From the NCBI GenBank assembly GCA_963818475.1, contig CAWFSF010000006.1:1632001-1696000 (forward strand): 64,000 nucleotides of DNA. Reading direction: 5' to 3'. How positions within the stretch are numbered: the stretch's first letter is position 1; each line of letters begins with the position of its first letter. The DNA is from Nitrospirota bacterium. Its GTDB lineage: Bacteria; Nitrospirota; UBA9217. Positions 5,134-43,207 of the stretch are shown piece after piece. Position numbers and translations under genes: made by a program. The notes under the pieces were generated by a model, which saw only the letters and a program-made list of their open reading frames with translations, ran no database searches and was not told the DNA's origin.

Positions 5134-5309
5134 GTTTCCTCCTAACAACACTTAGCTTATGATGGAGAATAAATAAAACATTTATATTGTCACGATCCTT
5201 GCTGATCATAAATTCAAGGTCTGAAAACCATTTCAGCAATACAACGCCTGCATCAAAGTCCTCTTTGAATGCAATTCTATTGATAGCAGCAATTTTATTT
5301 CTATCAATA

Positions 5310-10963: not shown

Positions 10964-12666
10964 CTATGCTTTTTTCTGCCTCAGCGCCAGCAGAACGTCC
11001 AGGCTTATCTCGAAGGCAGCCGAGGGCATGGTGATCTGACGGCGTTCGAGCACCTCAGGCCGCAGCTCGCCGATGAACCCCGCCTCGCGCCCGGACGCAA
11101 CGATCCTGCCGCAACGGCCCGGCAGATAGAGCGGGTGCTCCGCGGGATCAAGCTTATACTCGATGCCCAGGTAATAGAGCAGGATATCGAGGAACGAGTG
11201 CATCTCGGAGAAATTCGCGGTCGGGTGCGAGATGAGCGACGCGAGCAGAAGGTCCGTGCGCGTTCCCATGTTCTGCTCAGGGTCGAGCACGGCCACCTCG
11301 CCGACCTCGAATATGCGATGCGGATAGAACGCCTTCGAGCTTGCCGTCTCGACGCTCAGGATCGACGGGACGACGCGGTTCCTGAGCACCGAATAGGCGA
11401 GCGACATCGGGTTCGCCACTTCGACGAGCTTCTCATCAGGCGACAGCGTATCCTCCAGCTCTTCGCGGGAGCAGAGGATATTGGACATGATCTCCTGGAA
11501 GCCCGACCCGACCATGTTCCCGCGCACCGTGTCCGACAGCAGTTCAAGCGCTGACAACGAGCCGACCGTCGACTGCTGCGGCATGATCGGCTGGAACGAG
11601 CCATATCCCCTGCTGATGGCATAGTCCTCAACGAGGTCCATGGGGTGCATGATATCGTCGCGGTAGGGCGGCACCACGACCGTTACTGCCCCGCTGGAGG
11701 CGGTGACGCGGTGCCCGTAGGCGCTTAAATGCTTTTTCACGTCGGTTAAGAGAAACGTTCTCACCGAGCCCGGCTGAAAATGTTTCGAGCGACACCTTCA
11801 TCTTGACGGAGGTATCATGGGGGAACGATATGCTCTTGCCGAGTTCGGTGGCATAGGGGTACAGGACCTTCACCGGCTCGATGTCGGCGCCGCGGTCGTA
11901 GAAGCTGGCAGCCAGGATATTGAGCGTCAGCACCGTCATCCTGAAATCCGTTCCGGTCACCTCGATCAGCACGCTTCGCGTCGTCGGCTTCACCTCGCCG
12001 ATCTCCGTGCTGTTGATGATCGGCGGGAACGAGAGCACGCGACCCAGGCTGTCGGTCAGGACCGGGTACTCCGGGAAGGACTTCACGATAGTGCCGTAGG
12101 CGATGCCTTTGGGGTGCTGTTCGAGGATCTCGGCAAGCGTCAGCTTCCGGTCCATGCCGAGCGGCGTAAACGATACTGATGACGGCTCTGCCAGGCGGTA
12201 GTCCACGGGAAAGGCGATCTTGTCGAGTTCGTAGATGCCGATCGAGACCGTGGAGCGCTTCCTGCCGAAGATCTCGGCAAGCTTGTCCTGGCTCTGGATC
12301 ATCTGCGCCAGAACATCGCTGCTCATGCGCATGCCGCTGGCAGTACAGGCGGCGATGAAGGGCCGCACGGTCTTCATGCCTTTGGCGACCCGGATCTCCC
12401 GCGTCGCCTTCCTGCCGTGCTGGAAGTAGGGAGAAGCTTCCGGCTTGCCGGCAAGGAAGATCCTGATCTGGCGCGCGATGCCCTCGGCAGACCACAGGTC
12501 GGGCCGGTTGCTGTCGGAAAGCTCGACCTTGAGATCGTCGGTCTCGGCAATGTATTCCTTGAGCTCGGCCTTGGCAAGCATGAGGCTGCTTTTCGAGCGT
12601 CTCAAGGGAAAGTTTCTTTCCGATGAGTCCGTCGAGGTCGCGTTTTTTGATGTCGATAGTAGGCAT
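10964..12666 (-). CDS. pheT: Phenylalanine--tRNA ligase beta subunit, short archaeal/eukaryal type (frameshifted)
   Basis: MPTIDI..., DSNRPDLWSAEGIAR, VLSFPPIINS, YRDDIMHPMDLVED; about 565 aa, with no B2 OB-fold and no C-terminal FDX-ACB domain. Confidence 0.9.
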
Positions 12667-12676
12667 GTTTTAAAAT

Positions 12677-12765
12677 CAGGGTTCAGGGTACAGGGTTTAG
12701 GGGTCAGGGTTAGGTTCTGGTCGTCAGGATCCAGTTTTTACTGAACCCTGAACCCTGTCCCCTGG
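12677..12765. repeat. Heptamer (CAGGGTT-like) periodic inverted-repeat element
   Basis: cagggttcagggtacagggtttaggggtcagggtt ... ctgaaccctgaaccctgtcccctgg, lying between pheS and pheT. Confidence 0.75.
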
Positions 12766-28788: not shown

Positions 28789-28845
28789 ATACCGTCTCAT
28801 GGTTCCAGACAGTTCATCGTACTGTCCCCCGAACATCCAAAATTT

Positions 28846-30778
28846 TTAAACTTTTTTCCTGTGGCAAAAACGACACTGATCGAAGCGTCTCCTGCACGCC
28901 AAAGGCAAAGAGATAACTGCTTTCTGCGCTATGCGGTTCGTGACAACTGACACAGGTCAGCGGCTTCCCGCGCCGCGACGGATCACGCTTATATTTTGTC
29001 GGGTGGCTGAGCTTTCTCTTCTTTTTTTTCCCAGTGCCGACCAGAACATGCCGTTCCGTGGCTTTTTCATCGTGGCAGGTCACACACAGGTCCCACACGG
29101 GTTTTCTGAGCCAGGCGGCGTTTTCACTGGCATGGGGATCATGGCAAAGCGTGCAGAAGCCTGCATCAACGGGTCCATGTTTGAACGATCTGCTCATAAC
29201 ATCGTTGTGACACTTAAGACAGGCATCACGTATGGTAGAGCTCTCGACCACCGGCATCTTCGGATCAAAAACCCGGGAACGCGCGGGGCCGTCGTTTCCA
29301 TAGGACAGGTTGATCGTATCAGAGATGGCCCCTTCATCGATTGCATCAAAGATGGTCACTTCTTTGTTCTTATCCTTGCTTTTGACCTTCCTATCCCTGG
29401 TTTTGACGACAAATACCAGGGTCTCAGCACTGTTCGCTTCCATCTCGCCCAGTTCCCACCGCACTTCATCGGCTTTGACTGTCGGGACTACTGCCTTGCC
29501 ACGGTAGTAGCTGCTGCCGGCCACATATTGCATGTTCTTTTCCAGTTTTTCCGTAATTCGGAGCTTTTTTACTACCGGGCCCTGCGCATACTGAAGGCTC
29601 ATGAGCACCTGTTTGCGATTTGTCAGGATCGGGAGCTTTTGACTGTTGACCACCTTGACATCGGCTGGATAGACCACGATTTCGATGCGGTTATTCAATT
29701 CCCGGCCTTCCGGCGTAATGTCAGGGCTCTTGGCAAGCCGGTCGCCCATGCCCACGGCAGTGAAACGCTTCAACGGTATTTCATTCGCTTTGAACAACGC
29801 TGACAGCGTCCGGGCCCGCGCCTGGGTAAGCGCCAGATTACTTTTGAATGGCTGTTTTTTCTCCTTCTGCTTCGGCAGGGGCTTCTTGTCAGTGTGGACC
29901 TCAATGAGCATCCGCTCACCCGGGCTCTGCTTCAGATAGGCGAAGACATCTTTCATCAATTCCCTGGCCTTCTCTTTGTCAGTAAAGGCAGCAGAGAGGG
30001 GATTAAAAAGGCTTTCTGCGGCAAAGGTGAATACCCGGGGTACGACAGGCTGGATCAACTTTGAGGCTTTCCAGGGGTCGACGGCCGCGAACTGGTACTT
30101 TACCGGATAAAGGTCCGGATTATGGCACGACAGGCAATACCAGACCGCTGCTGGTCCGTGGACATGCCGGCCTGTAGGAATGCTCCGATGGCAGGTGTAG
30201 CAGATCGCTTCTTCAGGCTTGTTGGGAGGTGACGCGGGAGAGGTTGCCTCAAGTTGGTGGCAGCCGGAGCAGGCAGCCTCATTGTCCCTTGAGTGAAACA
30301 AATCAGGCGCATATCCCTCAGGTGCCTTCCGTCCGGTATAAAGCTCCACCTTGCTGAAGACGCTGATCTGACGGACCAGAACTTCCTTAAACTCTTTTTT
30401 CAGTTCCGTTCCTTTGTCGTCCTTCTTCCCGGCATCAACAAGGAGCAGGACCTTTACGGTGATGGTGTTCATCCCCGGTTGCAGGTCCAGGCCCTGAATC
30501 GCATGCCGTCCCGAGGAAGTATCAATGACCTCAGATACCGTCCCGCCGACGACTACTTGAAAATAAGGCACCGTTGACCAGTCCGATGCCGGATCAAGCA
30601 CCAGATTTACCTTGTTGCCGACAACAGAGTTCGGCTTCGGATAGATAACAGAAAGCGCCGACGGTTCTGCTGTCGCAGCAGAGGCAACCAGGGCGCTCAT
30701 TATGAACATGAAGAGTGTTCTTAGAACCATCGTGCGCAGGCCCCGACAAGAAGGGTTGAGTTCAGCAGGTGCGATCAT
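28846..30778 (-). CDS. Multiheme c-type cytochrome (about 8 CXXCH) with an internal OmpA/MotB-like peptidoglycan-binding domain
   Basis: CSGCH, CYTCH, CLSCH; then IEVHTD...SNLALTQARA...GMG...NNRIEIVV; then CLKCH, CTLCH, CVTCH, CVSCH, plus CRFCH in a shifted frame ending at TAA 28846. Confidence 0.82.
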
Positions 30779-32130
30779 TTTCCGTTTATCCGCATCTCCC
30801 GTGAATACTTTTTCTCGCCATGACAGCCGGGCGCACAGGTGCCGCCAGTCGCGGTCTTCGTAAAATCGATCGGCATTTTCCATCCGCCTAACACGAGCGT
30901 CTCCCTGATATGCACCGGAGTGCCGTTCGAGGCATGCACCTCATGGCAGGCGCGGCAGGCCCTTCCCTTTCCATTCTTGTTCACATGAAGAAAGTGGAGG
31001 TTCCGCGAGCCATCCCTGAAATTCGTCTCGCTCGTTGTTGTGAGCTTCTTGAACGCCGCCTTGTCATGGCAGCCGAAGCAGAGCGCATAATTTCCTTCGG
31101 CAAAGGGGGTATAGAATGCCGAAGAATAATTCTTTGCCAGTATCCTCCAGTAATCGGAACCATGGGGGTTATGACAGGCGACGCAGTTTCCGCTCTTTGT
31201 CGGGCCATGGCTGTCCTTGTTGGCCGCGAGAAACGACTTCATGTCAATGATCGCACCCTGTCCGGTCGTCAGCTCTTTGTTGTGGCACCCGAGGCAGAGA
31301 TCCATCTCCGCCACAGGAAGAAGCCGGGGCTGATCAGAGAAGTGGGGGTCGTGGCAGTTCATGCAGGCCTTCGCATCGTTCATGGGGCCATGCGGGGAGA
31401 TCGCTTTTTTCACAAGGGCGGTTTCGTTCGGATGGCAGGTGGAACAGACCCCGGGGACCGCATCGATCAGCATGGCTTTATTTGCCGAGCCGTGAGGGCT
31501 GTGGCACTGGGTGCAGGATTGCTTCACCGGGGGATGCACTGTCTTTTTCGTTTTTATGCCCTCCTCCTTGTCCGGATGGCACATAAAACAAAGAGAACTC
31601 TCCTCCTGGATCAGGCGGTTCGGGAAATCGCTCTGGTGATTGTCGTGACAACCTGAACAATCGCCTGCAGCCACGGGAGGGTGCATGTTCGCCTGTTTCA
31701 TCATATCTTCAGGATGGCACTGAAAACAAAGCTTCGGCAGCGCCTCCTTGAGCATTCCCTTATTCGCGGACTGATGCGGGTTGTGGCAGGAGATGCAATC
31801 ACCACCCATGACCGGCGCATGAACCGTTTTCTTTTTATCCTTCGGCTCGTGGCACATATTGCAGAGGTCGGCGCCTTGCTGGGACAAGGTGATCGTCAGA
31901 TTATCCGGATGCTTGGTCTTTTTATTGGTTTCCGCGGTCACCGTGTGGCAGGTCGTACACATGCCCTCTTTCACAGGATTATGCACAAACTTATCCGTCC
32001 CCATCAACGCGTGACAACTGGCGGAGACACAGGTTTCAGTCTGTGCATCAGCTCCTTTTGAAACAGCGATGATCAACGCAAAAGACCACAAAGTGAGAAA
32101 AAATATACTTTTTTTATCTCGCTTAACCAT
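30775..32130 (-). CDS. Periplasmic multiheme cytochrome c (13 CXXCH plus CX4CH and CX3CH)
   Basis: Motifs counted directly in the 451-aa translation; signal peptide; paired CXXCHxxH pattern. Confidence 0.92.
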   Translation of the reverse strand: MVKRDKKSIFFLTLWSFALIIAVSKGADAQTETCVSASCHALMGTDKFVHNPVKEGMCTTCHTVTAETNKKTKHPDNLTITLSQQGADLCNMCHEPKDKKKTVHAPVMGGDCISCHNPHQSANKGMLKEALPKLCFQCHPEDMMKQANMHPPVAAGDCSGCHDNHQSDFPNRLIQEESSLCFMCHPDKEEGIKTKKTVHPPVKQSCTQCHSPHGSANKAMLIDAVPGVCSTCHPNETALVKKAISPHGPMNDAKACMNCHDPHFSDQPRLLPVAEMDLCLGCHNKELTTGQGAIIDMKSFLAANKDSHGPTKSGNCVACHNPHGSDYWRILAKNYSSAFYTPFAEGNYALCFGCHDKAAFKKLTTTSETNFRDGSRNLHFLHVNKNGKGRACRACHEVHASNGTPVHIRETLVLGGWKMPIDFTKTATGGTCAPGCHGEKKYSREMRINGK

Positions 32131-32190: not shown

Positions 32191-32207
32191 TGCAATTAAT
32201 ATGCCCT
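32191..32207 (-). promoter_or_regulatory. sigma54 (-24/-12) promoter of the cytochrome operon
   Basis: Minus strand AGGGCATATTAATTGCA, with exact GG-N10-GC spacing, about 60 nt upstream of ATG 32130. Confidence 0.7.
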
Positions 32208-32411: not shown

Positions 32412-34160
32412 TTACTTTCCGCTTGCTGGACCAATGCCCAGCAAGATTGCGTAAAACTTTCCGGCAGCTATGTCATTGATACCTGCAACATCCGGGATCC
32501 TCTCCGGATTGATCTTGGCTGGTTTATTTTTTTGATCCTTGCCCCATACCCATATCGTGCCATCAGACATCAATGCCATGGAATGATACATCCCGGCAGA
32601 GACCCTTTTTATTTTGCTCAAGCCCTCGACCTTGAAAGCCGATGAGCCGTCCGCAACCTTCTTGCCAAGCTGGCTGTACTCGTTCCTGCCCCACGCCCAT
32701 ACACTCCCGTCTGTCTTAAGGGCTAGGGTGTGATTCAGGCCGGCCTGAATATCTACGATACCGGAAAGACCTGCGACCTTGACAGCCTTTAACTGGTTGG
32801 TCTTCGTACCATCGCCCAGCATCCCGTTGATATTCGCACCGAAAGCCCAGACGGTCTTGTCCGATTTCAGCACCACCGTATGTTGCAGACCCGCAGCAAC
32901 ACTGACGGCGTCGGAAATACCCTCTGCCTGCACAGGGCTCACGCGGTCCTTGTTCGAGCCGTCGCCAAGCTGGCCAAATTCGTTCCGGCCCCATGCCCAG
33001 ACCGTACCATCGGACTTGACCGCAACAGAGTGATACATGCCTGCAGCTATCCTCACGACTCCTGACAGGCCGTTGACCCGTACCGGGGTCATGCGGTCAG
33101 CAGTAGAGCCGCTTCCGAGCTGTCCATACGAATTTCCTCCCCACGTCCATACCGTTCCATCAGAAGCGAGCGCGATCGTATGAACCATGCCTGCGGCGAC
33201 ATCAGTGATCTTCCAGAGGTCCTTGACCGCAACAGGAATGCGACTGTCCTGGACAGCGCCGTTCCCCAATTGTCCGTTGGTGTTTCTGCCCCAGGTCCAT
33301 ACAGAGCCGTCGGACCTGAGTGCGATCGCATGTTCGTGACCGGCGGATACCTTTACCACGTTCTCCAGCCCGCCCACGGACAGGAATACATCACGGTCCC
33401 CCGGGGTGCCGTCGCCAAGCTGGCCGAATTCATTCAGCCCTCCGGTCATGACCGTATTCGCCTTCCCCGGCACCCAGCTACGGGCTGGGGGAGAGCCGAC
33501 GCCGGGCTTGCCGAAATCATTCTGTGCTCCGGTTATGGACGCACTCGCCTTGGCCGTCGCAGGCATCGAGCCGCTCCTGACCGGCCAGAGAAATTTGTAG
33601 CTGCAAAAGGACACATAGTCCATCAGCATCTCTCCCGACGCCAGGTCCATGATCCACAGATAATCAATAACGTCCTTTCCCCTGGAGGAGGACCAATAGA
33701 AGTGATTCTGCACATTTTTAAAAGGGTGGCCGACAGGAAGTGCGGGATAGTACCTGGATTTATCAACAAGTGTTTCAAGCTCATCGATCGTTGGAAAACG
33801 CCAGTCGGCGTATCCAAAATTCGGTTTTTTCCCGCTGTTCATGTCCTGGAGATACTGTTTGGCGCCTTCGTTCGGGAGGTGCAGCGTGCTGACATTCGCG
33901 TCTTTGAGCCAGATGAGTCCGGTGTTCTTGTCGAGGATCGTACCATCACCCCTGTCGGTAAAACGCGTACTGACCGGCTCTGCCGACGCTCCCGATTTCT
34001 CGGACTGGACAGGCGGCTGCACAGGGTCGGCGGCCGCCGTTTTTTCCTGGCTTGCTGGTTCCTTGCTTTTTGAAGAGCCCTTTTTGGGTTTTGCGACTGC
34101 TCCAGTCGCCACAAGTGAAGCCATGATAAAACAGACAAAAACAATAACTATTTTACGCAT
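32412..34160 (-). CDS. Secreted DUF1566 (Lcl-like) plus RCC1-repeat beta-propeller protein
   Basis: RFTDRGDGTILDKNTGLIW...WRFPTIDEL...YWSS; about 7 repeats of DGTVWxWGxNxxGQLGxG. Confidence 0.88.
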   Translation of the reverse strand: MRKIVIVFVCFIMASLVATGAVAKPKKGSSKSKEPASQEKTAAADPVQPPVQSEKSGASAEPVSTRFTDRGDGTILDKNTGLIWLKDANVSTLHLPNEGAKQYLQDMNSGKKPNFGYADWRFPTIDELETLVDKSRYYPALPVGHPFKNVQNHFYWSSSRGKDVIDYLWIMDLASGEMLMDYVSFCSYKFLWPVRSGSMPATAKASASITGAQNDFGKPGVGSPPARSWVPGKANTVMTGGLNEFGQLGDGTPGDRDVFLSVGGLENVVKVSAGHEHAIALRSDGSVWTWGRNTNGQLGNGAVQDSRIPVAVKDLWKITDVAAGMVHTIALASDGTVWTWGGNSYGQLGSGSTADRMTPVRVNGLSGVVRIAAGMYHSVAVKSDGTVWAWGRNEFGQLGDGSNKDRVSPVQAEGISDAVSVAAGLQHTVVLKSDKTVWAFGANINGMLGDGTKTNQLKAVKVAGLSGIVDIQAGLNHTLALKTDGSVWAWGRNEYSQLGKKVADGSSAFKVEGLSKIKRVSAGMYHSMALMSDGTIWVWGKDQKNKPAKINPERIPDVAGINDIAAGKFYAILLGIGPASGK

Positions 34161-34378
34161 ATCCTTCCCGCTTTCCTAAAAGGTCGATCGCCGATTGCTT
34201 GTTCAAACGCCCGAGGGAAATTCTCTCAATGACGACCATGAGAACGACCACATCATACACATAATGATGAACAAATGCAAGATTCAGCTTTACAAATGTT
34301 CACTCAATATGTTATTTTGCAAAGTACTGTTCTATTTTTACCGATGCAAAAAACTAAAAATAGGGGAATAAAAAAAAC

Positions 34379-35807
34379 ATGCTCCGAAAAACCTGTTCAA
34401 TCCTGTTTAACGTGTTTTTTATCTCTTTGTCTTTCATCATTTTCGCACAGACCTCGTTTGCAGAGGTAAATGATGACTATGCTCTCAAGATTTCCCTCGA
34501 GAACCAGCTGGAGAAAAAGCTCAAGCAGGTCATCGTGGAGATCACCGGTACGGACAGAGTGGTCATCTTCGTGAACGCCGAACTGTTCTCCGCCCGGGGC
34601 GAGAGAGGCAAAATGCTCGAGAAGAAGAAGACGAACGCGCTGGTGCTTCCCGGAGTCCCGGAAAAAAAGGAGATCGGTTCCGGCCAGTCCGAGATGGTGA
34701 TCGGCGCCGGGAGCAGCAAGTATACGGTCAACAAGATCATCCTTTCCATCTGGATCGACAAGAGCGTGCCCGGGTCCATCGTCGACCTCATCCAGGATAT
34801 CGCCAAGAACGTGATCGGCTTCAATCAGAACCGGGGCGACCAGATCAACGTCAAGAAGGTCGACTTCGAGTCAAAGGGCTTTTTCCGGAGCGCTCTTTGC
34901 GCTGCCGAACTTCTTCTGGCTGATCCTGACGCTGGTCGGCGGCTTCATGCTGGTAACGGTCGGCATGTTCTTCATGGATCCGCTTAAAAAAATCGTGCCG
35001 GCGCTAAAGAACATCGACTGGGGCCTGATCCGCGGAACCGGAGGTTCACCGAGCGGCCGAGCGAACCGATGACATACGAGCGAGAGGTCCTGTCCGGACG
35101 GCCGGCAATCCTAGACAAGGAACCTGCGCCGCTGGCGGGGGCTAAGGATGAAGCCGTTCCCTTCTCCTTCATCCGGGAACGGGACATCCCGTGCCTCGCC
35201 TTCCTGCTGAAGGACAAGACCGCGCAGGACATCGCCATCGTCATCAACTACCTCGACCCGGCCATCGGCATGCGGCTCCTCGAGCTGTTCCCGAAGGACA
35301 AGCAGGTTGAGGTCGCGCTCATCCTCGGCCAGGAAGAGATCAACATGGAAAAGGTGCATGCCCTCGAAGAGATGGTCAAGAGCAGGCTGACCTATGTCGT
35401 CGGCGGCGAGAACAAGCTGATCACCCTGCTCGACATGACCAACGAGGATGTTCGCGACAAGATCGTCAAGACACTGGAGACCAGGGACGCCCAGACCGCG
35501 ACGCGCCTCAAGTCAGAGGATCAAGAGCCTGGAATCGATCATTCGGGAACTGCCTGCTCCCGGCATTCAGACCCTGTACCGGAACATCGATGCCACGCTG
35601 TTCGCCCAGATCCTGAAGGCGTCACCGGAAGACATCCAGCAGAAGGTCATCTCTTCGCTCAGCGCCGGCGCCGCCGAACGGCTCAAGCAGGAAATGGAGC
35701 TGAGCCGACCTCTCTCCGGCGTGCGCCTCCGGAGGGAAAAACAGAACCTGATGGTCCTGGTGCGGCGGCTGATCAGCGAAGGTCTTGTGGAGGTTGAAAA
35801 CAACTAA
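34379..35807 (+). CDS. FliF-RBM3 / TM / FliG middle+C-terminal fusion protein (frameshifted)
   Basis: Signal peptide; LENQLEKKLKQVI..VVIFVNAE..PGV..IGFNQNRGDQINVKKVDF (FliF C-terminal ring motif); TM NFFWLILTLVGGFMLVTVGMFF; PFSFI..LAFLL..QDIAIVINYLDP, VVGG and SLSAGAAERLKQEMEL (FliG). Confidence 0.75.
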
Positions 35808-35808
35808 C

Positions 35809-36631
35809 ATGGAAAAAATGGATAAAATGACCATAATCGGGCTCGTCGCCATCCTGCTGACGATCCTGTATGTACTGGCCGTAGGCAATATCCTGCACAT
35901 GCTCTTCAACCCGCTGGCGCTGATCATCGTGTACGGCGGTACCTTCAGCGCGACCCTGATCGCCTATCCCTGGGCCGTGATCAAGGAGATCGTCCCGTCG
36001 CTGCGGGTCATGCTGTTCCCCAGCAAACATAGCGATCAAGGACATGGAGGACATGATCGCGACGCTTTCGCTCGCTGGCCGAAAAGGCCCGGCGGGACGG
36101 CGTTGAGAGCCTGGCCGGCGAGCTGCCGAAGATCAACGACAAGTTCCTGATCCATGGCATCCAGATGCTCGTTGACGGGCTTGAACACGATGTCATCAAG
36201 GACAACCTCGACCGCGAGATTTTCTATACGCGCCACAACCAGCAGAAGGTCTCGGGCGCCTTCCGGACCATGGCCACGGTCGCTCCCATCTTCGGACTGC
36301 TCGGCACGCTCATGGGCATCGTGGACATGCTGCGGAACCTGTCCAACCCGGCCAGCATGGGCGCCGCCATGTCCAATGCGGTCACGGCGACCTTTTACGG
36401 CATCTTTTCCGCGAACGTGTTCATCCCGATCGCGACCAAACTCTACGGACCACAGCGAGCGCGACATCATCAACAAAGAAATGATCGCCGAAGGCATCAT
36501 GGCGATCCAGCAGGGCGATGTTCCCCTCATCCTGAGGAAAAAGCTGACCGCCTTCATCATGGCCCATATGCAGGCAGAGATCGGATACCGCGTGAACGTA
36601 CATCGTCGACAGAACAGGCTGCCGAGCATGA
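35809..36631 (+). CDS. motA: MotA/PomA-type stator A subunit (frameshifted; 3' end approximate)
   Basis: ALIIVYGGTFSATL, AEKARRDG, FLIHGIQMLVDG, APIFGLLGTLMGIV, ATFYGIFSAN, EGIMAIQQG. Confidence 0.85.
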
Positions 36632-37303
36632 TCGAACAAAGAAAAGAAATCGGCAATATCTGGCTGATCATCTTCTCCGATATCACCACGAACCTGATGC
36701 TCTTCTTTCTCATGCTCTTCGCCATGACGCGCATGACGGCATCGGACAAGCAGATGGTGGTCGCCGGCATGGAGAGCACGGTCGTGAATCAGTCCGCCCG
36801 CGAACAGGCGGAGCTGGAGCGCCAGGCCAAGATGCAGCGCGAAGAAGAGGCGATCAAGCGGCTCCAGCTGGCGGTCGCCGACGGAACGCTTGCGGGAAAA
36901 GCGACGATCAGCGGTGACGGACAAGGCCGTCAATATCGCGCTCAATCCCGAGATCGTTCTTTTCCATCGGCAGCGCCAAACTCAATCCCGGCACGGTCAA
37001 TGTCCTGGAAAGCCTGGTCGGGCCTGATCCAGATGTTCCCCAACGACATCATCATCGAAGGCCATACCGATCACGATACCGGTGCGCGGAGGGGCCTATC
37101 GTTCCAACTGGGAGCTGTCCATTGCGCGGGCCGTCGGGGTCGTCAACTTCTTCACTGCCGGCGGCATCGATCCCCGAAGCAGCTGATCGCCGCCGGCTAC
37201 GGCGAGTTTCATCCTGCCTATCCGAACGATTCGGAAGTCAACCGGGCCAGGAACCGGCGCATCGAGATCACCCTCGTCCGCCAGGCAGAGGAGCACGCAG
37301 TGA
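36628..37303 (+). CDS. motB: MotB-type stator B subunit 1 (frameshifted)
   Basis: WLIIFSDITTNLMLFF TM with Asp; IEGHTD, SNWELSIARA, GYGEFHP, NRRIEI. Confidence 0.82.
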
Positions 37304-37970
37304 TGTCGGTCCTGAAAAAATTCGTACAGTATACGTGAAGAGCACGATGGAGGAGACCGAGCTCTGGATGCTGCCCTACAGCACCCTGATGCTGACGCTG
37401 GTCATCCTTTTCATCATGTTCTACGCCTTTTCCCTGTCCGGTTCCGTGGAATACGAGACCGCGCTCTCCGACCTGGCGTCCACCAACCCGAACGACCCCC
37501 GGGTCAAGCAGATGAAGCAGGAGATCGCGCTGGCGAAGAATATCCGCGATTTCATCGAAAAGAACAAGTTGACGGACAAGATCCAGCTGGTCATGACTCC
37601 GCACTCCATCAAGATCAAGATGGAAAGCTTCGCGCTCTTCGACAGCGGGAGCGCCGACGTGAAGAAGGACATCCTGTTCTTCCTCGACTACCTGAACGAG
37701 CAGTTGAAGCCCATGAACAACATGGTCATCGCCGAAGGGCATACCGATAACGTCCCGATCCACAACCAGCAGTTCGACTCGAACTGGGAGCTGTCATCGG
37801 CCCGTGCCTTCAGCGTCATTTATTTCTTCCTCAATAAAGGCATTGCGCCTGAACGCCTCGTCGCCCATGGCTTCGGCGAGTTCAGGCCTGCCTATACGAA
37901 CGAGACGGAGACCGACCGGGCGAAGAACCGGCGTATCGAGATCACCGTGGTCAGAGGAGCTACAAAGTGA
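37303..37970 (+). CDS. MotB-type stator B subunit 2 lacking the conserved TM Asp
   Basis: WMLPYSTLMLTLVILFIMFYA; LFDSGSA, AEGHTDNVP, SNWELSSARA, GFGEFRP, NRRIEI. Confidence 0.82.
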
Positions 37971-39266
37971 AAAAAATACTTACTCTTGTCATCGGTGCCA
38001 TGCTCTGCATCGCAACCGGTGCCGGGGCCATAACGCCGAAGCAGGTGGAGCGGATCGAGCAGCTGAAGAAGGAGGTCGTCTCGCTCTTTCGGGAGGGCAA
38101 GTTCGAGCAGGCGGCGCCGCTCCTGAACGAGGTCCTGGCCATCGATCCTTTTGACAAGACGGCTGCCCGGTACCTTGCCCTGGCCAAGCAGCAGGCCATG
38201 GAGCCGTACTGCAAGGATGCCGCCGACGCGTTCCAGAATGAGGACTACGCCAAGGCGATCGAGATGTGGGATAAGCTGCTCAAGATGAATCCCGAAGACC
38301 GCCGTCTTCGACAGCCTGATCGATACGACGAAGAACCTGATCACCGACAAGACAACGGCCAAAATGTACCAGCACGCCGAAAAGTTCATCCAGGACGACG
38401 ACTACAAGTCCGCAGTCAACGAACTGGAAAAGATCCTGGCGGTCAGGCCCTACGACCGGCAGGCCAGCAGCCTCCTCAACACTGCCAAGAGCAATGTCGT
38501 CGATGTCCGGACCAAAAAACACTACGATCAGGCCGACGCCTACCTCAAAGAAAAACAATACGACCGCGCCATCGAAGAATGGAAAAAGATCCTCGACATC
38601 GACGATTCCCAGGAAGCCGCCTCACGATACATCGCATCGGCGGTCCGCGAAAAGATGGGCAGCCTCTATGTCGAGGCGAAGCAGGCCTATGAGCGAGGCG
38701 ACTACATAACCTCGCGCGATTCTTACAACAAGATCATTGCGGACAACCCGACAGACCTGGATGTCAAGACGATGATCGCGCGCCTCGACGACGTCATCAA
38801 GGTGTCGCTCAAGATCGACGAGAAAGGCCCGGCCGGCGACATGATGCGCAAGGCAATGACACAGTTCATTGCCGCCGACGGCAACCGCAAAGCATCCATG
38901 GCTGCCGCCTGGTACGCCTTCCAGCTGAACCCGGCACCGCTCACCACCGCGGTCAAAGGATTTCTGGAACTCAAGTACGCTTCTATTTTGACGACCATGG
39001 AAGCGCCGGTCGGCGACATGAACATTATAGACCAGTACCTCTTTACCGCGTTGAACCACATTTATGAAGGCCGGTACGACCTCGCGATCCAGAAGTGCAC
39101 CATCGTCATTGAGCTGCAGCCCAAGAACATTCTGGCGTGGAAGAGGCTCGGATCGGGCTACTATGCGATCGGCAAGAAGGACAAGGCGAAAGAAACCTGG
39201 GAGAAGGCGCTGAAGATGGCGCCTGACGATCCTGAACTGAAGCAGTTCATTCGTCAGGCAAAATAA
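37967..39266 (+). CDS. Secreted multi-TPR protein (frameshift near 38310)
   Basis: GTG start overlapping the motB2 stop; signal peptide; repeated TPR helices; AWKRLGSGYYAIG. Confidence 0.82.
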
Positions 39267-39326
39267 TACAAATAATGCAGACGGAACGCTGATCGTCAGC
39301 CGTTCTGTTCACACGGGACTGCCCGC

Positions 39327-40718
39327 TTAAATAAGCCCGAATCGTTTCATACGACGCCTGAAGGCATCCCGGGGCATTTTCAGCAGCTGGGCAGCTTTGG
39401 TCTGGTTGCCGTTCGCCATGTCAAGCGATTTTCTGACCAGCGCATGCTCAACATCCTCGATCGACAGACCCGACTCGGGAATGACAAAGCCATCCAGGGA
39501 AACAGGCGCGCCCGAGACGCCTCCTGCGGGCGCACCGGTATCAGAAACGCTGTCCAGGAGCTCCTGCGGCAGATGTTCCGGCTGGATCTCGTCCCCGACT
39601 TCCAGGATCATTGCACGCTCGATGACATTCTTCAGTTCTCTCACGTTTCCCGGCCAGGAGTATGCAAGGAGTATCTCTTCTGCGTCCCTGTTGATCCGAT
39701 GAATGTTTTTATGGCACTCCTGGCTGAAATGGTTGATAAAGTGATGTGCGAGCAATAGAACATCACGGCCCCGGTTCCTGAGAGGAGGCAGGGTAATGGG
39801 CACCACCTGCAGGCGATAGTACAGATCCTTCCTGAACTTTCCTTCGCTCATTGCTTTCGATAGTTCCTGGTTCGTTGCCGATACGAGCCGGACATCGACA
39901 GTGATATCCTTTATTCCGCCAACCCGCTTAAAGGTCTTCTCTTCGAGCATTCTGAGCAGCTTTGCCTGCATGCTCATATCCATGTCGCCGATTTCGTCCA
40001 GGAATACGGTGCCGCTGTCGGCGAGCTCGAACAGGCCTTTCTTGGCGGCCTTTGCGTCGGTAAAGGCGCCCTTCTCATGCCCCATAAGCTCGGTCTCGAG
40101 CAGCGTGACCGGCAAAGCGGCGCAGTTGATCGCCATGAACGGCTTGTCCGCCCGCGCACTGCCGTAGTGGATGGCCTTCGCGACAAGTTCCTTGCCCGTG
40201 CCGCTCTCGCCCTGGATCAGCACCGTGGTGGCATCACTTCGGGCAATTTTCCTGATCAGGTTCTTGATCTTGACCATATCATCAGATTCACCCATGATCG
40301 CATCGACCTGTGAGCTGGTTTCCTTCCGGAGTTGTTTGACCTGTGTGCGCAGAGAGCCTGCCTCGAGCGCTTTTTTAATCACAAAGGTTATTTCTTCGAG
40401 ATTGAACGGTTTGCTGATATAGTCATAGGCGCCGAGCTTCAGAGCTTTGACAGCGGTTTCGACCATACCGTAGGCCGTGATCATTATGACCATCAGCCCC
40501 CGCTCCTGCACATGCAGTTTTTCGAGCAGCTCAAGTCCGGTCATTTCCGGAAGCCGGTTATCGAGCAGAATGAGGTCAGGGGTGTCTTCCGTAAGCAGTT
40601 CCAATCCTTTTTCCGCGGACTCTGCCGTGACGACATCGTACCCTTCCTTGACCAGATGCTGTTCCAGCGTCCAGCGAATCAACTTTTCATCATCAATGAC
40701 CAGAATCTTCTGTACCAT
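39327..40718 (-). CDS. sigma54-dependent response regulator (NtrC/AtoC family)
   Basis: Receiver domain, GESGTGKE, GAFTDA, FRKDLYYRL, WPGNVREL, Fis-type HTH. Confidence 0.95.
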   Translation of the reverse strand: MVQKILVIDDEKLIRWTLEQHLVKEGYDVVTAESAEKGLELLTEDTPDLILLDNRLPEMTGLELLEKLHVQERGLMVIMITAYGMVETAVKALKLGAYDYISKPFNLEEITFVIKKALEAGSLRTQVKQLRKETSSQVDAIMGESDDMVKIKNLIRKIARSDATTVLIQGESGTGKELVAKAIHYGSARADKPFMAINCAALPVTLLETELMGHEKGAFTDAKAAKKGLFELADSGTVFLDEIGDMDMSMQAKLLRMLEEKTFKRVGGIKDITVDVRLVSATNQELSKAMSEGKFRKDLYYRLQVVPITLPPLRNRGRDVLLLAHHFINHFSQECHKNIHRINRDAEEILLAYSWPGNVRELKNVIERAMILEVGDEIQPEHLPQELLDSVSDTGAPAGGVSGAPVSLDGFVIPESGLSIEDVEHALVRKSLDMANGNQTKAAQLLKMPRDAFRRRMKRFGLI

Positions 40719-40736
40719 CTATCCTGCTCCTCGCTG

Positions 40737-42227
40737 TTATCCCTTTTGCTCTGACGTCCCCTGCTTCGGATAGGGGAACGTGATCGCGAAGGTCGCCCCA
40801 TTGCCCGCAGAGCTCATGACGCTGATTTCGCCGTTATGCTGTTCAACGATCCGCTGGGTGATCGACAGCCCCAGCCCCGTCCCTTGCTGGCGTGTGGTAA
40901 AGAAGGGGTTAAAGATCCTGTTCAGATTGTCCGTGGAAATGCCTTTACCGCTGTCGGCAAGCATGATCGATACGGATCCGGGAGAGTCCGCCGAAGGGCT
41001 CGCCGATCTGGTCTCTACCGTGAATTTGCCGCCGTTCGGCATCGACTGGATCGCATTCAGCGCAATATTGATCAGCGCCTGCTGTATCAGGTCGGGATCA
41101 AGCGTCAGCCAGGGAAGCCCTGCCGCCAATCTGCGCTCGGTCGTGATGCCTTGTTTGGCGAACTGCGGAGCCAGGAAATCGAGCAGTTTCCCGATCATTT
41201 CGTTGATATCGACCAGCGACATCTTTGGCTCCGGCGGACGGGCGAAGGAGAGCAGATTGCGAACAGCCTTGTCCATCCGTTCCACCTGGGACAAGACCTC
41301 CTCCAGGACGGCCCGCTTCGGTTCACCGACCGGTATCTCTTTTTTCAGGACCTGGATGACGCCTGCAATGCCTGCCAGCGGATTTTTAATCTCATGGGCG
41401 ATGCCTGCCGCCATCTCTCCGATGGAGGCCAGCCGGTCCGCCCGCTTCATTTGTTCAAAATGGTACTGCTCAACCCGCCTGCGGGCGCGCTCAAGCTTCG
41501 ACAGAAGCGAATTAAAGGCTTCGCCGAGACTGCCAATATCGTCGGAGCTTTTCACCTCGACGCGGGCCTCGAGACCGCGTTCGGCACGCTCCATGGTGGC
41601 AATAAGCTCCTGGATGGGGTTGGTAACGAAACGCGTGAGGAACATGGAAAGCGAGATGGCGAGCACTGCCGTGACCCCGAAGGCCCAGAGGAACATCGTT
41701 TTGCTGAGGTCTTCCACCTTTTCCTGGGTCTGCGCCATGGAGACATCAACCGTTAGGATGCCATTCAGCTTGATGATAGAACCGTGGCAGCGATAACAGC
41801 GCTCGTCGTTGTCGATCGGGAACAACACGGAGAAGACGCCCTCGTCCCGACGCTTAATCGGTTTCTTGAACCGTCCCTCAAGGAACCACTTTTGGGTCGA
41901 TGGGTCGACGGACCTCCCAATCATCCCGCGCTTCGAGGATTTAAGGACAACGCCGTTGGGGCTGAAGATCTTCACTTCCTGAATATTATGGTACCCGCCC
42001 ACCGCCTCGATAATATGCTGCACTTCATTGCTCTTGCCGTTCAGCATGGCGTTGGACAGGCTGCGTTCGATGGTATTGGCGATCACCAGCACATTATCTT
42101 CCAAAGCGCCTTCCATCTGCGCCCGCTGGTAGCCGATATTGATCCAGGTCCCGGCACCGATGGTCACGGCGAGGATCGCGGAGACCGAGATGATGATCTT
42201 GCTCTTGAGGCTGGAGATGATCCTCAC
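40737..42227 (-). CDS. Sensor histidine kinase with periplasmic CXXCH and a HAMP domain
   Basis: Two TMs flanking ERCYRCHG; AHEIKNPL H-box; N, G1, F and G2 boxes. Confidence 0.93.
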   Translation of the reverse strand: MRIISSLKSKIIISVSAILAVTIGAGTWINIGYQRAQMEGALEDNVLVIANTIERSLSNAMLNGKSNEVQHIIEAVGGYHNIQEVKIFSPNGVVLKSSKRGMIGRSVDPSTQKWFLEGRFKKPIKRRDEGVFSVLFPIDNDERCYRCHGSIIKLNGILTVDVSMAQTQEKVEDLSKTMFLWAFGVTAVLAISLSMFLTRFVTNPIQELIATMERAERGLEARVEVKSSDDIGSLGEAFNSLLSKLERARRRVEQYHFEQMKRADRLASIGEMAAGIAHEIKNPLAGIAGVIQVLKKEIPVGEPKRAVLEEVLSQVERMDKAVRNLLSFARPPEPKMSLVDINEMIGKLLDFLAPQFAKQGITTERRLAAGLPWLTLDPDLIQQALINIALNAIQSMPNGGKFTVETRSASPSADSPGSVSIMLADSGKGISTDNLNRIFNPFFTTRQQGTGLGLSITQRIVEQHNGEISVMSSAGNGATFAITFPYPKQGTSEQKG

Positions 42228-43195
42228 CCGGCATCCACCTTTCCGATGATCTCCCGGAGGTCTCCGATCTTCTGCTCCCGCATGAAGCCCTCGATGCCGT
42301 TCAGCACGTCAAGCGTGGCGCGCGGGTTGACGAAATTCGCCGTCCCCACCGCCACAGCCGATGCTCCGGCCAACATGAACTCGATGGCGTCCTCGCCTGT
42401 GACGATCCCGCCCATGCCGATGATCGGCAGGGACACGGACCGCGCCACCTGCCATACCATGCGCACGGCAATTGGCCTGATCGCGGGACCGGAAAGGCCG
42501 CCCGTGCAGTTGGCGAGCCGCGGTTTTTTACAGCGAACATCGATGGCCATGCCGAGCAGGGTATTGATCAGGGACAGCCCGTCGCAGCCTGCATCGGCCG
42601 CCGCCCTGGCGAAGGCGGTCACGTCGGTCACGTTCGGCGACAATTTGGCGATGAGCGGCAATCGCGTTGCCTTGCGAACGGCCGAGAGCAGGTCAAAGGT
42701 GGCCCGGAGGTCGGTGCCGAAGGCCATCCCGCCTGCTTTTACGTTCGGGCAGGAGATATTCACCTCGATGCCGGAGATCCCGCTGGCGCCATCGAGACGC
42801 TCGGCCACGCCGACGTACTCCTCGAGGCTGTAGCCGAACATGTTCACGATCACCGCCGTATCGTACTTTCTCAGATAGGGCATTTTCTCGTTGAGGAATA
42901 CATCGACCCCCGGGTTCTCGAGCCCGATGGCGTTCAGCATTCCCGACGGCGTTTCCCAGATGCGCGGCGGCGGGTTTCCTTTGATCGGTTTCAGGGAAAT
43001 ACCCTTGACGATCACGCCGCCCAGCTGGTTCAGATTTACGAACTCGGCAAACTCCTCGCCGTAGCCGAAGGTCCCGGATGCGGTAAGCACGGGATTTTTC
43101 AGCTTGATCCCGGCGAAGGTGACGGAGAGGTCAGGGCTTCCGATTACGGATTTCTGATTGCGGATTGCGGATTTTTTGTCCAGCGTCGTGCTCAC
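42224..43195 (-). CDS. pyrD: Dihydroorotate dehydrogenase B, catalytic subunit
   Basis: ASGTFGYG, GNPPPR, NISCPNV, KLSPNVTD, GGLSGPAIRP. Confidence 0.96.
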   Translation of the reverse strand: MSTTLDKKSAIRNQKSVIGSPDLSVTFAGIKLKNPVLTASGTFGYGEEFAEFVNLNQLGGVIVKGISLKPIKGNPPPRIWETPSGMLNAIGLENPGVDVFLNEKMPYLRKYDTAVIVNMFGYSLEEYVGVAERLDGASGISGIEVNISCPNVKAGGMAFGTDLRATFDLLSAVRKATRLPLIAKLSPNVTDVTAFARAAADAGCDGLSLINTLLGMAIDVRCKKPRLANCTGGLSGPAIRPIAVRMVWQVARSVSLPIIGMGGIVTGEDAIEFMLAGASAVAVGTANFVNPRATLDVLNGIEGFMREQKIGDLREIIGKVDAG

Positions 43196-43207
43196 CTTTC
43201 CACCTTC

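Follow-up and report, generated by a model that had tools for sequence, protein, structure and literature searches.

A five-gene operon encoding a FliF-FliG fusion and a flagellar-type stator is a candidate flagellum-independent motor in Nitrospirota and Elusimicrobiota

Operon layout and gene products

The window analyzed here, a stretch of 64,000 nucleotides from a Nitrospirota genome, carries a single string of five genes on the plus strand, running in frame maps from an ATG at 34379 to a stop codon at 39264-39266. The first gene (34379..35807, four frame pieces as assembled) encodes a rotor protein in which a FliF ring-building domain (RBM3), a transmembrane (TM) helix and the FliG middle and C-terminal domains (FliG-MC) are fused. 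It is followed by a flagellar-type motA with MotA_N and MotA_ExbB domains (35809..36578), by motB1, whose product has a plug, a TM helix with a conserved Asp and an OmpA-like domain (36628..37305, 3' end approximate), by motB2, a second MotB paralogue with plug and OmpA domain (37300..37970, 5' end approximate), and by a gene for a TPR-repeat protein that is predicted to be secreted (37967..39266). The 3' end of motA is approximate because the TAG stop of its relatives reads GAG near 36576 in the window. A gap of 1 nt separates the end of the rotor gene at 35807 from the motA ATG at 35809, and the TPR gene begins at 37967, ahead of the motB2 stop at 37970, so that the two genes overlap, as expected from the five tightly coupled genes that a preliminary description had placed at 34379-39266.

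Pfam searches were run on in-frame pieces of the frameshifted window copy. The rotor pieces matched YscJ_FliF_C (6.7e-7), FliG_M (2.6e-7) and FliG_C (7.6e-13), and MotA matched MotA_ExbB (1.2e-23) and, just below the cut-off, MotA_N (1.3e-5). MotB_plug was found twice (8.5e-10 and 4.4e-5), OmpA was matched by MotB2 (3e-16) and by a 52-aa piece of MotB1 (0.0019), and the TPR protein matched many TPR families. Every family proposed for searching in the preliminary description (YscJ_FliF_C, FliG_M, FliG_C, MotA_ExbB, MotB_plug and OmpA) was therefore matched in the operon, its gene assignments agree with these matches, and the ARRDG motif that it reported is found in the window MotA. Together the results confirm, at the level of sequence, an operon for a FliF-RBM3/TM/FliG-MC fusion, a flagellar-type MotA, two MotB paralogues and a predicted secreted TPR protein.

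The fusion protein is arranged as a signal or anchor helix, a periplasmic RBM3-like ring-building domain, one TM helix, a linker, and the FliG middle and C-terminal (torque-helix) domains. PF08345 (YscJ_FliF_C), with a cut-off of 23.8 bits, scored 30.3 bits on the window piece and 24.0 bits on P0001, an intact 473-aa orthologue. The predicted monomer model of P0001 (pLDDT 82.5) adopts an alpha-beta-beta-alpha-beta ring-building fold with an insert at residues 32-162, and Foldseek matched the model to FliG MC (7e-10) and to the FliF RBM3/S-ring (3e-4 to 3e-3). The insert in the RBM domain is 44 residues long, carries an invariant LPGVP motif and is modeled with low confidence. FliG_N had no match in P0001, and the flagellar FliG equivalog TIGR00207 reached 66.8 bits against a cut-off of 226.7, with only profile positions 78-324 covered. 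Similarly, flagellar FliF (TIGR00206) scored 23.1 bits against a cut-off of 129.75, and PF01514 (YscJ_FliF, the RBM1/RBM2 region) gave no match in five holder genomes, operon included. The EHPQR motif for FliM binding is not kept (E125 in 6/37, H126 in 0/37, R160 in 2/37), and family-specific invariant residues are present. As judged from sequence and the predicted model, a covalent link within a single chain takes the place of FliG-N and the FliF tail.

Operon MotA scored 35.6 bits with PF20560 (MotA_N) and 88.3 bits with PF01618 (MotA_ExbB). The closest solved structures to P0002, a MotA orthologue, are flagellar MotA/PomA (2e-40 to 1e-22), and all NCBIfam MotA models fell below cut-off, the best at 188.5 bits against 340. 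The accessible text of PMC7564593 gives two stator-rotor charge pairs for E. coli, R90-D289 and E98-R281. The E. coli numbering was carried over through loci L087 and L088, and the argument on charge pairs depends on this alignment to E. coli. On the stator side, the R90 position is Arg or Lys in 33 of 37 proteins and Leu in the other four, the E98 position is acidic in just two of 37, and P173 and P222 are kept in all 37. On the rotor side, the D289 position is Glu in 36 of 37 fusion proteins, the D288 position is Gln in 26 and Glu in 11, the K264 position is Lys or Arg in 33 of 37, the R281 position is Gly in 36 of 37, and the R297 position aligns poorly. By this alignment an R90-D289-type pair is retained, and the E98-R281 pair is lost jointly on both proteins.

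MotB1 matched MotB_plug with 41 bits and OmpA with 58 bits, and all 36 MotB1 sequences that cover the position of E. coli D32 have Asp there. In MotB2 the same position is Asp in 20 of 35 sequences, Thr in 12 (all Nitrospirota) and Asn in three; the source lineage has Thr instead of the channel Asp. We know of no precedent for a stator with a single Asp. The TPR protein has a hydrophobic N-terminus that, judged by eye, is signal-like.

Conservation and relation to flagella

The preliminary description had staked its reading on a gene order conserved in other genomes. Among 42 distinct fusion-gene loci, which come from Nitrospirota and Elusimicrobiota (Pfam was also run on the Elusimicrobiota loci), motA and motB1 are present in 37 and motB2 and the TPR gene in 36, in the same order. 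L079 is the sole rearranged locus, and the five loci without motA stop at a contig edge. The five-gene order is kept across the two phyla at 24-40% identity, and the genes are under purifying selection (dN/dS 0.04-0.22 in all pairs). Genomes of Elusimicrobiota carry up to four paralogous copies of the fusion. Of eight paralogous loci, three lack a motA within a distance of about 9 kb, and in seven a TPR gene adjoins the fusion gene. A search with a language model also gave leads in further phyla.

The operon is distributed independently of FlhA, a co-occurrence that the preliminary description had singled out for examination. In the Nitrospirota sample the fusion was patchy, being found in 17 of 401 genomes, only three of which also have a classical FliG, and FHIPEP (FlhA) was absent from 12 of the 14 holders tested and present in two. 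In the Elusimicrobiota sample the fusion is common, with 54 of 151 genomes having it, and four have FHIPEP, with an overlap of two, which leaves 52 of 54 holders without FlhA. Across the whole source genome (7 contigs, 91% complete), FliG_C was matched at the operon locus only, and FHIPEP, Flagellin_N, FliMN_C and YscJ_FliF each had zero matches; the operon thus does not supply fliF, fliG and motAB to a flagellum encoded elsewhere in that genome, in line with the original reading. None of the 53 other ORFs in the window belongs to a flagellar or chemotaxis family, which bears out the reported lack of such genes in the 64 kb. G257, a relative with a closed 2.3-Mb genome, has an intact operon and no match to FHIPEP, flagellin, FliMN_C or YscJ_FliF, and no classical FliG was found for it in the phylum scan. 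FliMN_C was matched in none of five holder genomes.

The flagellated relatives G021, G001 and G273 have, at other places in the genome, a classical FliG in addition to the fusion as well as flagellar MotA paralogues (29-34% identity), and in G021 the operon stands alongside a full separate flagellar set. In the MotA phylogeny that had been suggested, a quick tree with a midpoint root and long flagellar branches, all 37 MotAs of the operon group together in a single clade (SH-aLRT 100), apart from the flagellar MotAs of the phylum. Furthermore, literature searches found no description of the five-gene operon, in keeping with the earlier claim of an undescribed system.

The genes next to the operon differ between the phyla. 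In the window, a gene for a secreted protein with Lcl_C and an RCC1 beta-propeller, identified by Pfam (32412..34160, minus strand), diverges from the operon. Genes of this family neighbor the operon at 11 of 13 Nitrospirota loci and at none of the 30 Elusimicrobiota-type loci, and on this adjacency the propeller gene is a candidate accessory gene linked to the operon. At 16-17 of the 30 Elusimicrobiota loci the operon directly adjoins genes for a 26-strand outer-membrane barrel, FecR and Ig-like proteins.

Integrity of the window copy and competing readings

All five genes are intact in three congeners, against which the window copy has about 16-19 single-base insertions (one of them 2 nt) and no single-base deletion; as assembled, it does not translate. 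The insertions lie near 34885, 35053, 35068 and 35515 in the rotor gene; near 36037, 36071 and 36443 in motA; near 36910, 36940, 37019, 37071, 37168 (2 nt) and 37288 in motB1; near 37334 and 37345 in motB2, the body of which is in one frame; and near 38305 in the TPR gene, with three more at the motA-motB1 junction. They are most likely assembly errors and not decay, because the congeners are intact, dN/dS is low, only insertions are seen and the essential pheT of the same window is also split. It is quite unlikely, in our judgment, that the source genome holds a true pseudogene cluster, with genuine frameshifts and a system that no longer works. Such a cluster would account for 16-19 frameshifting insertions packed into 3.4 kb while 38310-43200 has none, and for the replaced motA stop codon. 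However, dN/dS between the window copy and its relatives (0.06-0.22) is similar to that of intact pairs and therefore does not fit the time needed to build up so many frameshifts. Additionally, no small indel is a deletion or falls in a homopolymer, frameshifts split pheT in two or more places, the source assembly of 7 contigs is 91% complete with 6% contamination, and G003, a second few-contig congener, has three single-base insertions in the neighboring RCC1 gene. We consider it highly improbable that the operon is in general a decaying, functionless remnant of a lost flagellar cluster. The four non-TPR proteins are all homologous to flagellar parts, and some databases call the genes FliG and MotA, but this reading is already contradicted by a gene order kept in two phyla under purifying selection, by coexistence with the complete flagellar set of G021 and by the paralogous copies in Elusimicrobiota, and the family-specific invariant residues also speak against it.

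The functional alternatives concern what the MotAB unit drives. In a non-rotary force transducer of the Tol-Pal or TonB type, MotAB would pull individual fusion proteins acting like TolA or TonB, with MotB2 in the role of Pal, the TPR protein in that of CpoB/YbgF and the RCC1 propeller in that of TolB. An OmpA-like protein without the channel Asp does parallel Pal, the periplasmic TPR protein and the secreted propeller of most Nitrospirota loci are in place, and the barrel, FecR and Ig-like neighbors in Elusimicrobiota fit a delivery of energy to the outer membrane. Nevertheless, the periplasmic domain is predicted to have an RBM3-type ring-building fold and no extended rod like that of TolA or TonB, the partner on the cytoplasmic side is FliG MC, which retains the acid of the torque helix, and the stator is of flagellar type with plug and OmpA domain. 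Moreover, the operon is not the Tol-Pal system of G000, G257, G011 and G152, because canonical TolQ and TolB are encoded elsewhere in these genomes; in G000 both lie on the contig of the operon (TolQ 208 bits; TolB 405 bits, over cut-off). Overall we regard the transducer as unlikely. An anti-phage system akin to Zorya, with a MotAB-type unit at its base, is scarcely credible: both MotBs match PADLOC ZorB models (1e-13 to 1e-23), but such matches are expected of any MotB, the 258-aa MotA has no match in PADLOC to ZorA, a protein with a long cytoplasmic tail, and is nearest to flagellar MotA/PomA, and the fusion and TPR proteins match no defense family at a meaningful level.

A proposed stator-rotor machine and its relation to known systems

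We consider it probable that the operon encodes a self-contained, flagellum-independent, ion-driven stator-rotor module. Conserved synteny and independence from flagella support the minimal non-flagellar stator-plus-rotor machine of the preliminary description; ring formation, turning and the process driven are features that we infer for it. In the proposed mechanism, five MotA subunits and a MotB dimer would conduct ions, and this dimer may be a MotB1/MotB2 heterodimer, a possibility raised by the loss of the Asp from MotB2 of Nitrospirota. As the MotA pentamer turns, it would push on the torque helix of the FliG-like part by way of the R90-D289-type charge pair that has been retained, and fusion proteins assembled into an oligomer in the inner membrane would thereby be turned or dragged. 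The TPR protein of the periplasm could bind the rotor protein and serve as its scaffold or as an output adaptor, and work would be passed to lineage-specific envelope partners. More tentatively, and with chances that we judge a little short of even, the operon may represent an undescribed class of machine, a minimal rotary motor whose flagellar-type MotAB stators act on a small ring in the membrane, built from one kind of FliF-FliG chain, and make it turn, with no export apparatus, rod or filament, to power an envelope or surface process.

To our knowledge, all FliG-MotA torque interfaces known so far are flagellar, and the Ton, Tol, Agl, Gld and Zor motors use other partners. If the proposal is true, this would be the first non-flagellar FliG rotor. 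It would either descend from the flagellar torque generator, in stripped-down form, or be related to the precursor of that generator and have survived. It would show that the torque generator can work alone, without export apparatus, switch, rod and filament, and may offer a far simpler model of stator-rotor coupling, with one rotor polypeptide, no FliM/N and one of the E. coli charge pairs. The origin of the flagellar motor core would become approachable with living examples. Source databases label some of the operon genes FliG and MotA; these labels would be a systematic mis-annotation that could wrongly suggest motility in metagenome-assembled genomes of non-flagellated Nitrospirota and Elusimicrobiota.

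The operon shares with the flagellar motor core (FliF, FliG and MotA5B2/PomAB) an RBM3-type domain and FliG MC with torque helix, a MotA with cytoplasmic MotA_N domain, R90, P173 and P222, and a MotB1 with plug, channel Asp and OmpA-like anchor. It differs in lacking FliF RBM1/2, the FliF C-tail and FliG-N, so that ring and rotor are one 473-aa chain, in a rotor without the EHPQR FliM-binding motif and in the lost E98-R281 pair. FliM/N, export gate and flagellin were not found in the non-flagellated holders tested, a second MotB and a TPR protein are added in 36 of 42 loci, and the NCBIfam equivalog scores are far below cut-offs.

In Vibrio, MotX and MotY form a periplasmic scaffold of TPR/OmpA type for the stators of the flagellar motor. 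Like the operon, such scaffolds place a periplasmic TPR-type protein and an OmpA-like protein that has no channel function beside a MotAB-type stator. PflA/PflB of Helicobacter and Campylobacter are another scaffold of this kind in an elaborate flagellar motor, according to the available part of PMC12054838. The likeness to both is one of type of part; the operon has no flagellum to scaffold, and its TPR gene is tied most tightly to the rotor gene. The operon resembles Tol-Pal in its 5:2-type ion-driven unit, its OmpA-like peptidoglycan binder and its periplasmic TPR protein, and a neighboring beta-propeller gene adds to the likeness in Nitrospirota. Its A subunit, however, is flagellar-type and not TolQ-type (tolQ, 20 bits against a cut-off of 221), and its transducer resembles FliF/FliG and not TolA. 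ExbBD-TonB, AglRQS-Glt, GldLM and ZorAB likewise have an ion-driven unit of the MotA/ExbB family without a flagellum, and the link of the Elusimicrobiota loci to outer-membrane barrel and Ig-like proteins recalls the motors of gliding and secretion. In contrast to the operon, the A subunits of these four systems are ExbB/TolQ-like or very divergent and have no FliG partner. Finally, the portion of PMC12505986 available to us regards the plug-plus-linker, the OmpA-like domain and the torque-generating interface as specific to the flagellum. The operon bears on this view, since it combines a plug, an OmpA-like domain and features of the torque interface without a flagellum.

Organization and reading frame of the motor operon

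A single coding string runs along the plus strand of the window from 34379 to 39266, with repeated frame changes in the frame maps. On its in-frame pieces the Pfam domains follow the order YscJ_FliF_C, FliG_M and FliG_C; MotA_N and MotA_ExbB; MotB_plug and OmpA, twice over; and TPR repeats. The junctions are tight, with the rotor gene (a FliF-FliG fusion) stopping at 35807, motA starting at 35809 and the TPR gene starting at 37967, where it overlaps the motB2 stop; approximate gene ends were counted by hand from the frame maps and an alignment to congeners. Frame maps, domain order and junctions thus bear out the five tightly coupled motor genes of the preliminary description.

The flanking genes are intact in the frame map and all lie on the minus strand. 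A multihaem cytochrome (30775-32130) and a predicted secreted Lcl_C/RCC1 propeller protein (32412-34160, divergent from the operon) lie on one side, and a sigma-54-type response regulator (39327-40718) and a histidine kinase with a HAMP domain (40737-42227), both convergent with the operon, just downstream on the other. A response regulator and histidine kinase pair also occurs near the operon in G021, a relative with an intact copy, and in G132. No sigma-54 promoter match was found upstream of the operon (34161-34378), and the window as a whole held 19 such matches against 29.7 expected, fewer than chance. One loose match lies at 32191-32206, upstream of the cytochrome gene, where matches of this kind are below chance level. 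At the edge of the window an open-ended ORF (1-5151, minus strand, more than 1717 codons) carries MG2, alpha-macroglobulin TED-like and CarboxypepD_reg domains and continues beyond it; these domains suggest a giant protein of the bacterial alpha-2-macroglobulin-like type.

The frame changes were studied by aligning the locus to three congeneric species (G003, G005 and G001; 84-88% DNA identity), in all of which the five genes are intact at 481-487, 268, 223-230, 233-238 and 441-453 codons in operon order. Relative to these congeners the window genes contain 16 clear frameshifting insertions, fifteen of one base and one of two, and three further insertions fall in the variable motA-motB1 junction. 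There were no single-base deletions and no insertions in homopolymers; the insertions are clustered, with none between 38310 and 43200. Near 36570-36630 the window reads GAG where the relatives have the MotA TAG stop, beside a 3-nt deletion, so that MotA and MotB1 share one frame as assembled.

Several results lead us to regard the insertions in the operon as very probably assembly errors. Comparison of the window copy with its relatives gives dN/dS values of 0.055-0.216, similar to those of intact pairs (0.04-0.14); such values fit poorly with the prolonged neutral decay required for frameshifts in this number. The essential gene pheT (about 10964-12737, minus strand; B3_4, B5 and tRNA_synthFbeta domains) is likewise broken near 11780 and 12590 and reads as three or more frame pieces; indel errors therefore extend beyond the motor operon. 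Furthermore, the assembly comprises 7 contigs at 91% completeness and 6% contamination, and the few-contig congener G003 shows three comparable insertions in its adjacent RCC1 gene.

Conservation and independence from flagella

For protein analyses we used the intact orthologues (P0001-P0005) from G021, whose genome is 100% complete. The 473-aa fusion was modeled from an alignment of 46 family members (pLDDT 82.5) as an N-terminal hydrophobic helix, an alpha-beta-beta-alpha-beta domain (residues 32-162), a single TM helix (176-212), a disordered linker, a FliG middle domain (265-337) and a FliG C-terminal domain (342-464). A 44-residue insert in the periplasmic domain was modeled at low confidence and bears an invariant LPGVP motif. 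In Foldseek searches of the PDB, the C-terminal half matched FliG MC chains (7e-10 to 4e-8) and the N-terminal half matched FliF in its RBM3/S-ring part (3e-4 to 3e-3). The fusion lacks FliF RBM1/2, the FliF tail and FliG-N. MotA is nearest to solved flagellar MotA and PomA structures (2e-40 to 1e-22). None of the operon proteins reached an NCBIfam flagellar equivalog cut-off, the scores being 66.8 bits vs 226.7 for FliG and 188.5 vs 340 for MotA.

We found 88 relatives that share words with the fusion protein; about 77 of them come from Nitrospirota MAGs at 65-78% identity and, where named at all, are called hypothetical protein or FliG. An exhaustive profile-free search returned 1340 representatives at E≤1e-3, of which 87 reached ≤1e-30. 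Many are full-length (450-750 aa), at identities down to 23%, and the sources, where named, were Elusimicrobiota, Endomicrobiales or unclassified bacteria. A language-model protein search additionally pointed to similar proteins of 480-720 aa with FliG_C/FliG_M, in clusters where Cloacimonadota, Bdellovibrionota, Bacteroidota and Thermodesulfobacteriota are the commonest phyla, and on these leads the family may extend well past Nitrospirota and Elusimicrobiota.

Gene order was examined in 42 distinct loci: 12 from Nitrospirota and 31 from a genome-collection scan with a 10-row alignment of the family, nearly all of the latter Elusimicrobiota MAGs, less one duplicate. Six-frame ORFs of these loci were searched with the five G021 proteins. 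motA and motB1 were present in 37/42 loci and motB2 and the TPR gene in 36/42, and in every such locus except the rearranged L079 the order was rotor-motA-motB1-motB2-TPR. The five loci lacking motA are each cut by a contig edge directly after the rotor gene. Pfam searches confirmed the same domains in five Elusimicrobiota loci, two distinct MotB paralogues are retained everywhere, and clustering of all neighbouring ORFs found the five operon genes to be the only ones common to both phyla. The synteny on which the preliminary description depended therefore recurs across two phyla.

The operon is the sole FliG_C match in the source genome. Searches of that genome (91% complete) for FHIPEP, Flagellin_N, FliMN_C and YscJ_FliF gave no matches and were positive in four flagellated controls. 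Likewise G257, a closed single-contig genome with an intact operon, has no classical FliG, FHIPEP, flagellin, FliMN_C or YscJ_FliF; a flagellum encoded elsewhere in the genome, a challenge to the preliminary description, was thus found in neither. The full-length fusion occurs in 17 of 401 sampled Nitrospirota genomes. Only three of these 17 (G001, G021 and G273) also encode a classical FliG (326-354 aa), and FHIPEP was found in two (G001 and G021) of the 14 holders tested, a set outside which G239, G250 and G273 fall. G021 holds both systems: on another contig, a motA of 29% identity is grouped with flhA and the flagellar fliG and flagellin genes. In Elusimicrobiota, 54/151 sampled genomes encode the fusion, often as 2-4 paralogues, and FHIPEP occurs in 4/151, two of which are also fusion holders. 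The fusion therefore mostly occurs without FHIPEP. In a quick maximum-likelihood tree with a midpoint root only, the 37 operon MotAs formed one clade (SH-aLRT 100), separate from the E. coli type and from flagellar MotAs taken from five Nitrospirota genomes.

Interface residues and candidate partners

Residues are numbered as in E. coli K-12 MotA, MotB and FliG. According to PMC7564593, MotA R90 interacts with FliG D289 and MotA E98 with FliG R281. The R90 position is R or K in 33/37 operon MotAs, and the D289 position is Glu in 36/37 fusions, corresponding to the invariant E436 of the 46-row alignment. E98 is acidic in only 2/37 MotAs, and Gly stands in place of its partner R281 in 36/37 fusions. 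As judged from these alignments, one known charge pair (R90-D289) is retained and the other (E98-R281) has been lost jointly from both proteins. The K264 position is K or R in 33/37 fusions, and MotA P173 and P222 are invariant in the family. The FliM-binding EHPQR motif is not conserved in the fusion family, which agrees with the absence of FliM/N.

The channel Asp is present in 36/36 MotB1 proteins. At this position MotB2 has Asp in 20 cases, Asn in 3 and Thr in 12, the last all from Nitrospirota and including the window. Since both MotBs are kept everywhere and the Asp has been lost from one of them in some lineages, the pattern suggests that MotB1 and MotB2 form a heterodimer or that MotB2 serves as a scaffold.

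The TPR protein is the closest companion of the rotor protein, because their pairing persists in paralogous Elusimicrobiota loci (L103-L110). A TPR gene adjoins the fusion gene in seven of these eight loci and lies 3 kb off in the eighth. Five of the loci have motA, and the other three consist of the TPR-fusion pair alone, with no stator genes nearby. Some paralogous Elusimicrobiota rotor genes, of 650-860 codons, also match the TPR profile (genomes G401-G553). A complex prediction for the mature TPR protein, the rotor periplasmic domain and both MotB periplasmic regions, each supplied with an alignment, scored 0.03 against a mark of 0.32 and counts neither way.

Further neighbours differ between phyla. 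Nitrospirota loci have the divergent Lcl_C/RCC1 propeller in 11/13 cases and, in seven, a 104-aa secreted protein without a Pfam family, often beyond the propeller gene, together with multihaem cytochromes. Elusimicrobiota loci have a second operon abutting or preceding the motor genes, which encodes an Ig-like (CARDB) protein of about 580 aa and a FecR-domain protein, each found in 16 loci, and a 638-aa protein found in 17/30 loci; examples of the three-gene set among L056-L086 are L067 (9782-13572) and L086 (5390-7900 and 12655-14598). The 638-aa protein was modeled (pLDDT 83) as an Ig-like domain and a barrel of about 26 strands with an aromatic residue at the C-terminus, and is therefore a predicted outer-membrane protein. 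Structurally it is matched best by MtrB from the Mtr porin-cytochrome complex (E 1.4e-10, TM 0.51), and next by LptD, OprC and ushers. Homologues of the barrel were found in 0/5 Nitrospirota holder genomes, in a search that shows little, having had no positive control.

Multihaem cytochromes lie beside the operon in the window (28817-32130, minus strand), L014 (2129-5315), L053 (4553-6034) and L054 (4758-6239), with paired CXXCH motifs and MtrC/MtrF-like domain matches, one also having an OmpA domain. In G021, G109 and G132 they immediately follow the TPR gene. It is possible that the motor operon is tied to porin-cytochrome conduits; the association may also be coincidence.

Proposed function and relation to known systems

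The data establish the operon's domain composition, its conservation as a unit of five genes, its evolution under purifying selection and its independence from flagella, as well as which interface residues are kept and which are lost together. We consider it likely that the operon encodes a stator-rotor module. In such a module ions would flow through a peptidoglycan-anchored MotA5-MotB2 unit, and the MotA pentamer would turn and push the FliG-like torque helices of a fusion oligomer, probably a ring. The TPR protein may serve as a periplasmic scaffold or output carrier, and the work would be delivered to lineage-specific envelope partners. The main rival, a rather improbable one in our estimate, is a non-rotary force transducer that works in the manner of Tol-Pal. 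Ordinary TolQ and TolB are encoded elsewhere in four holder genomes; therefore the operon is not the Tol-Pal system of these genomes, and we rejected that identity. Zorya was also rejected, as PADLOC found no ZorA among the operon proteins.

We found no published description of such an operon in the full-text literature, a scope that excludes subscription journals and supplements. A FliF-FliG fusion is mentioned neither in the portions covered here of a recent MotAB phylogeny (PMC12505986), whose supplements could list such stators, nor in those of a 2026 preprint (PMC13277936). In its covered portions the phylogeny treats the plug, the OmpA-like anchor and the torque interface as flagellum-specific. 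There is a real chance that the operon represents a new class of machine.
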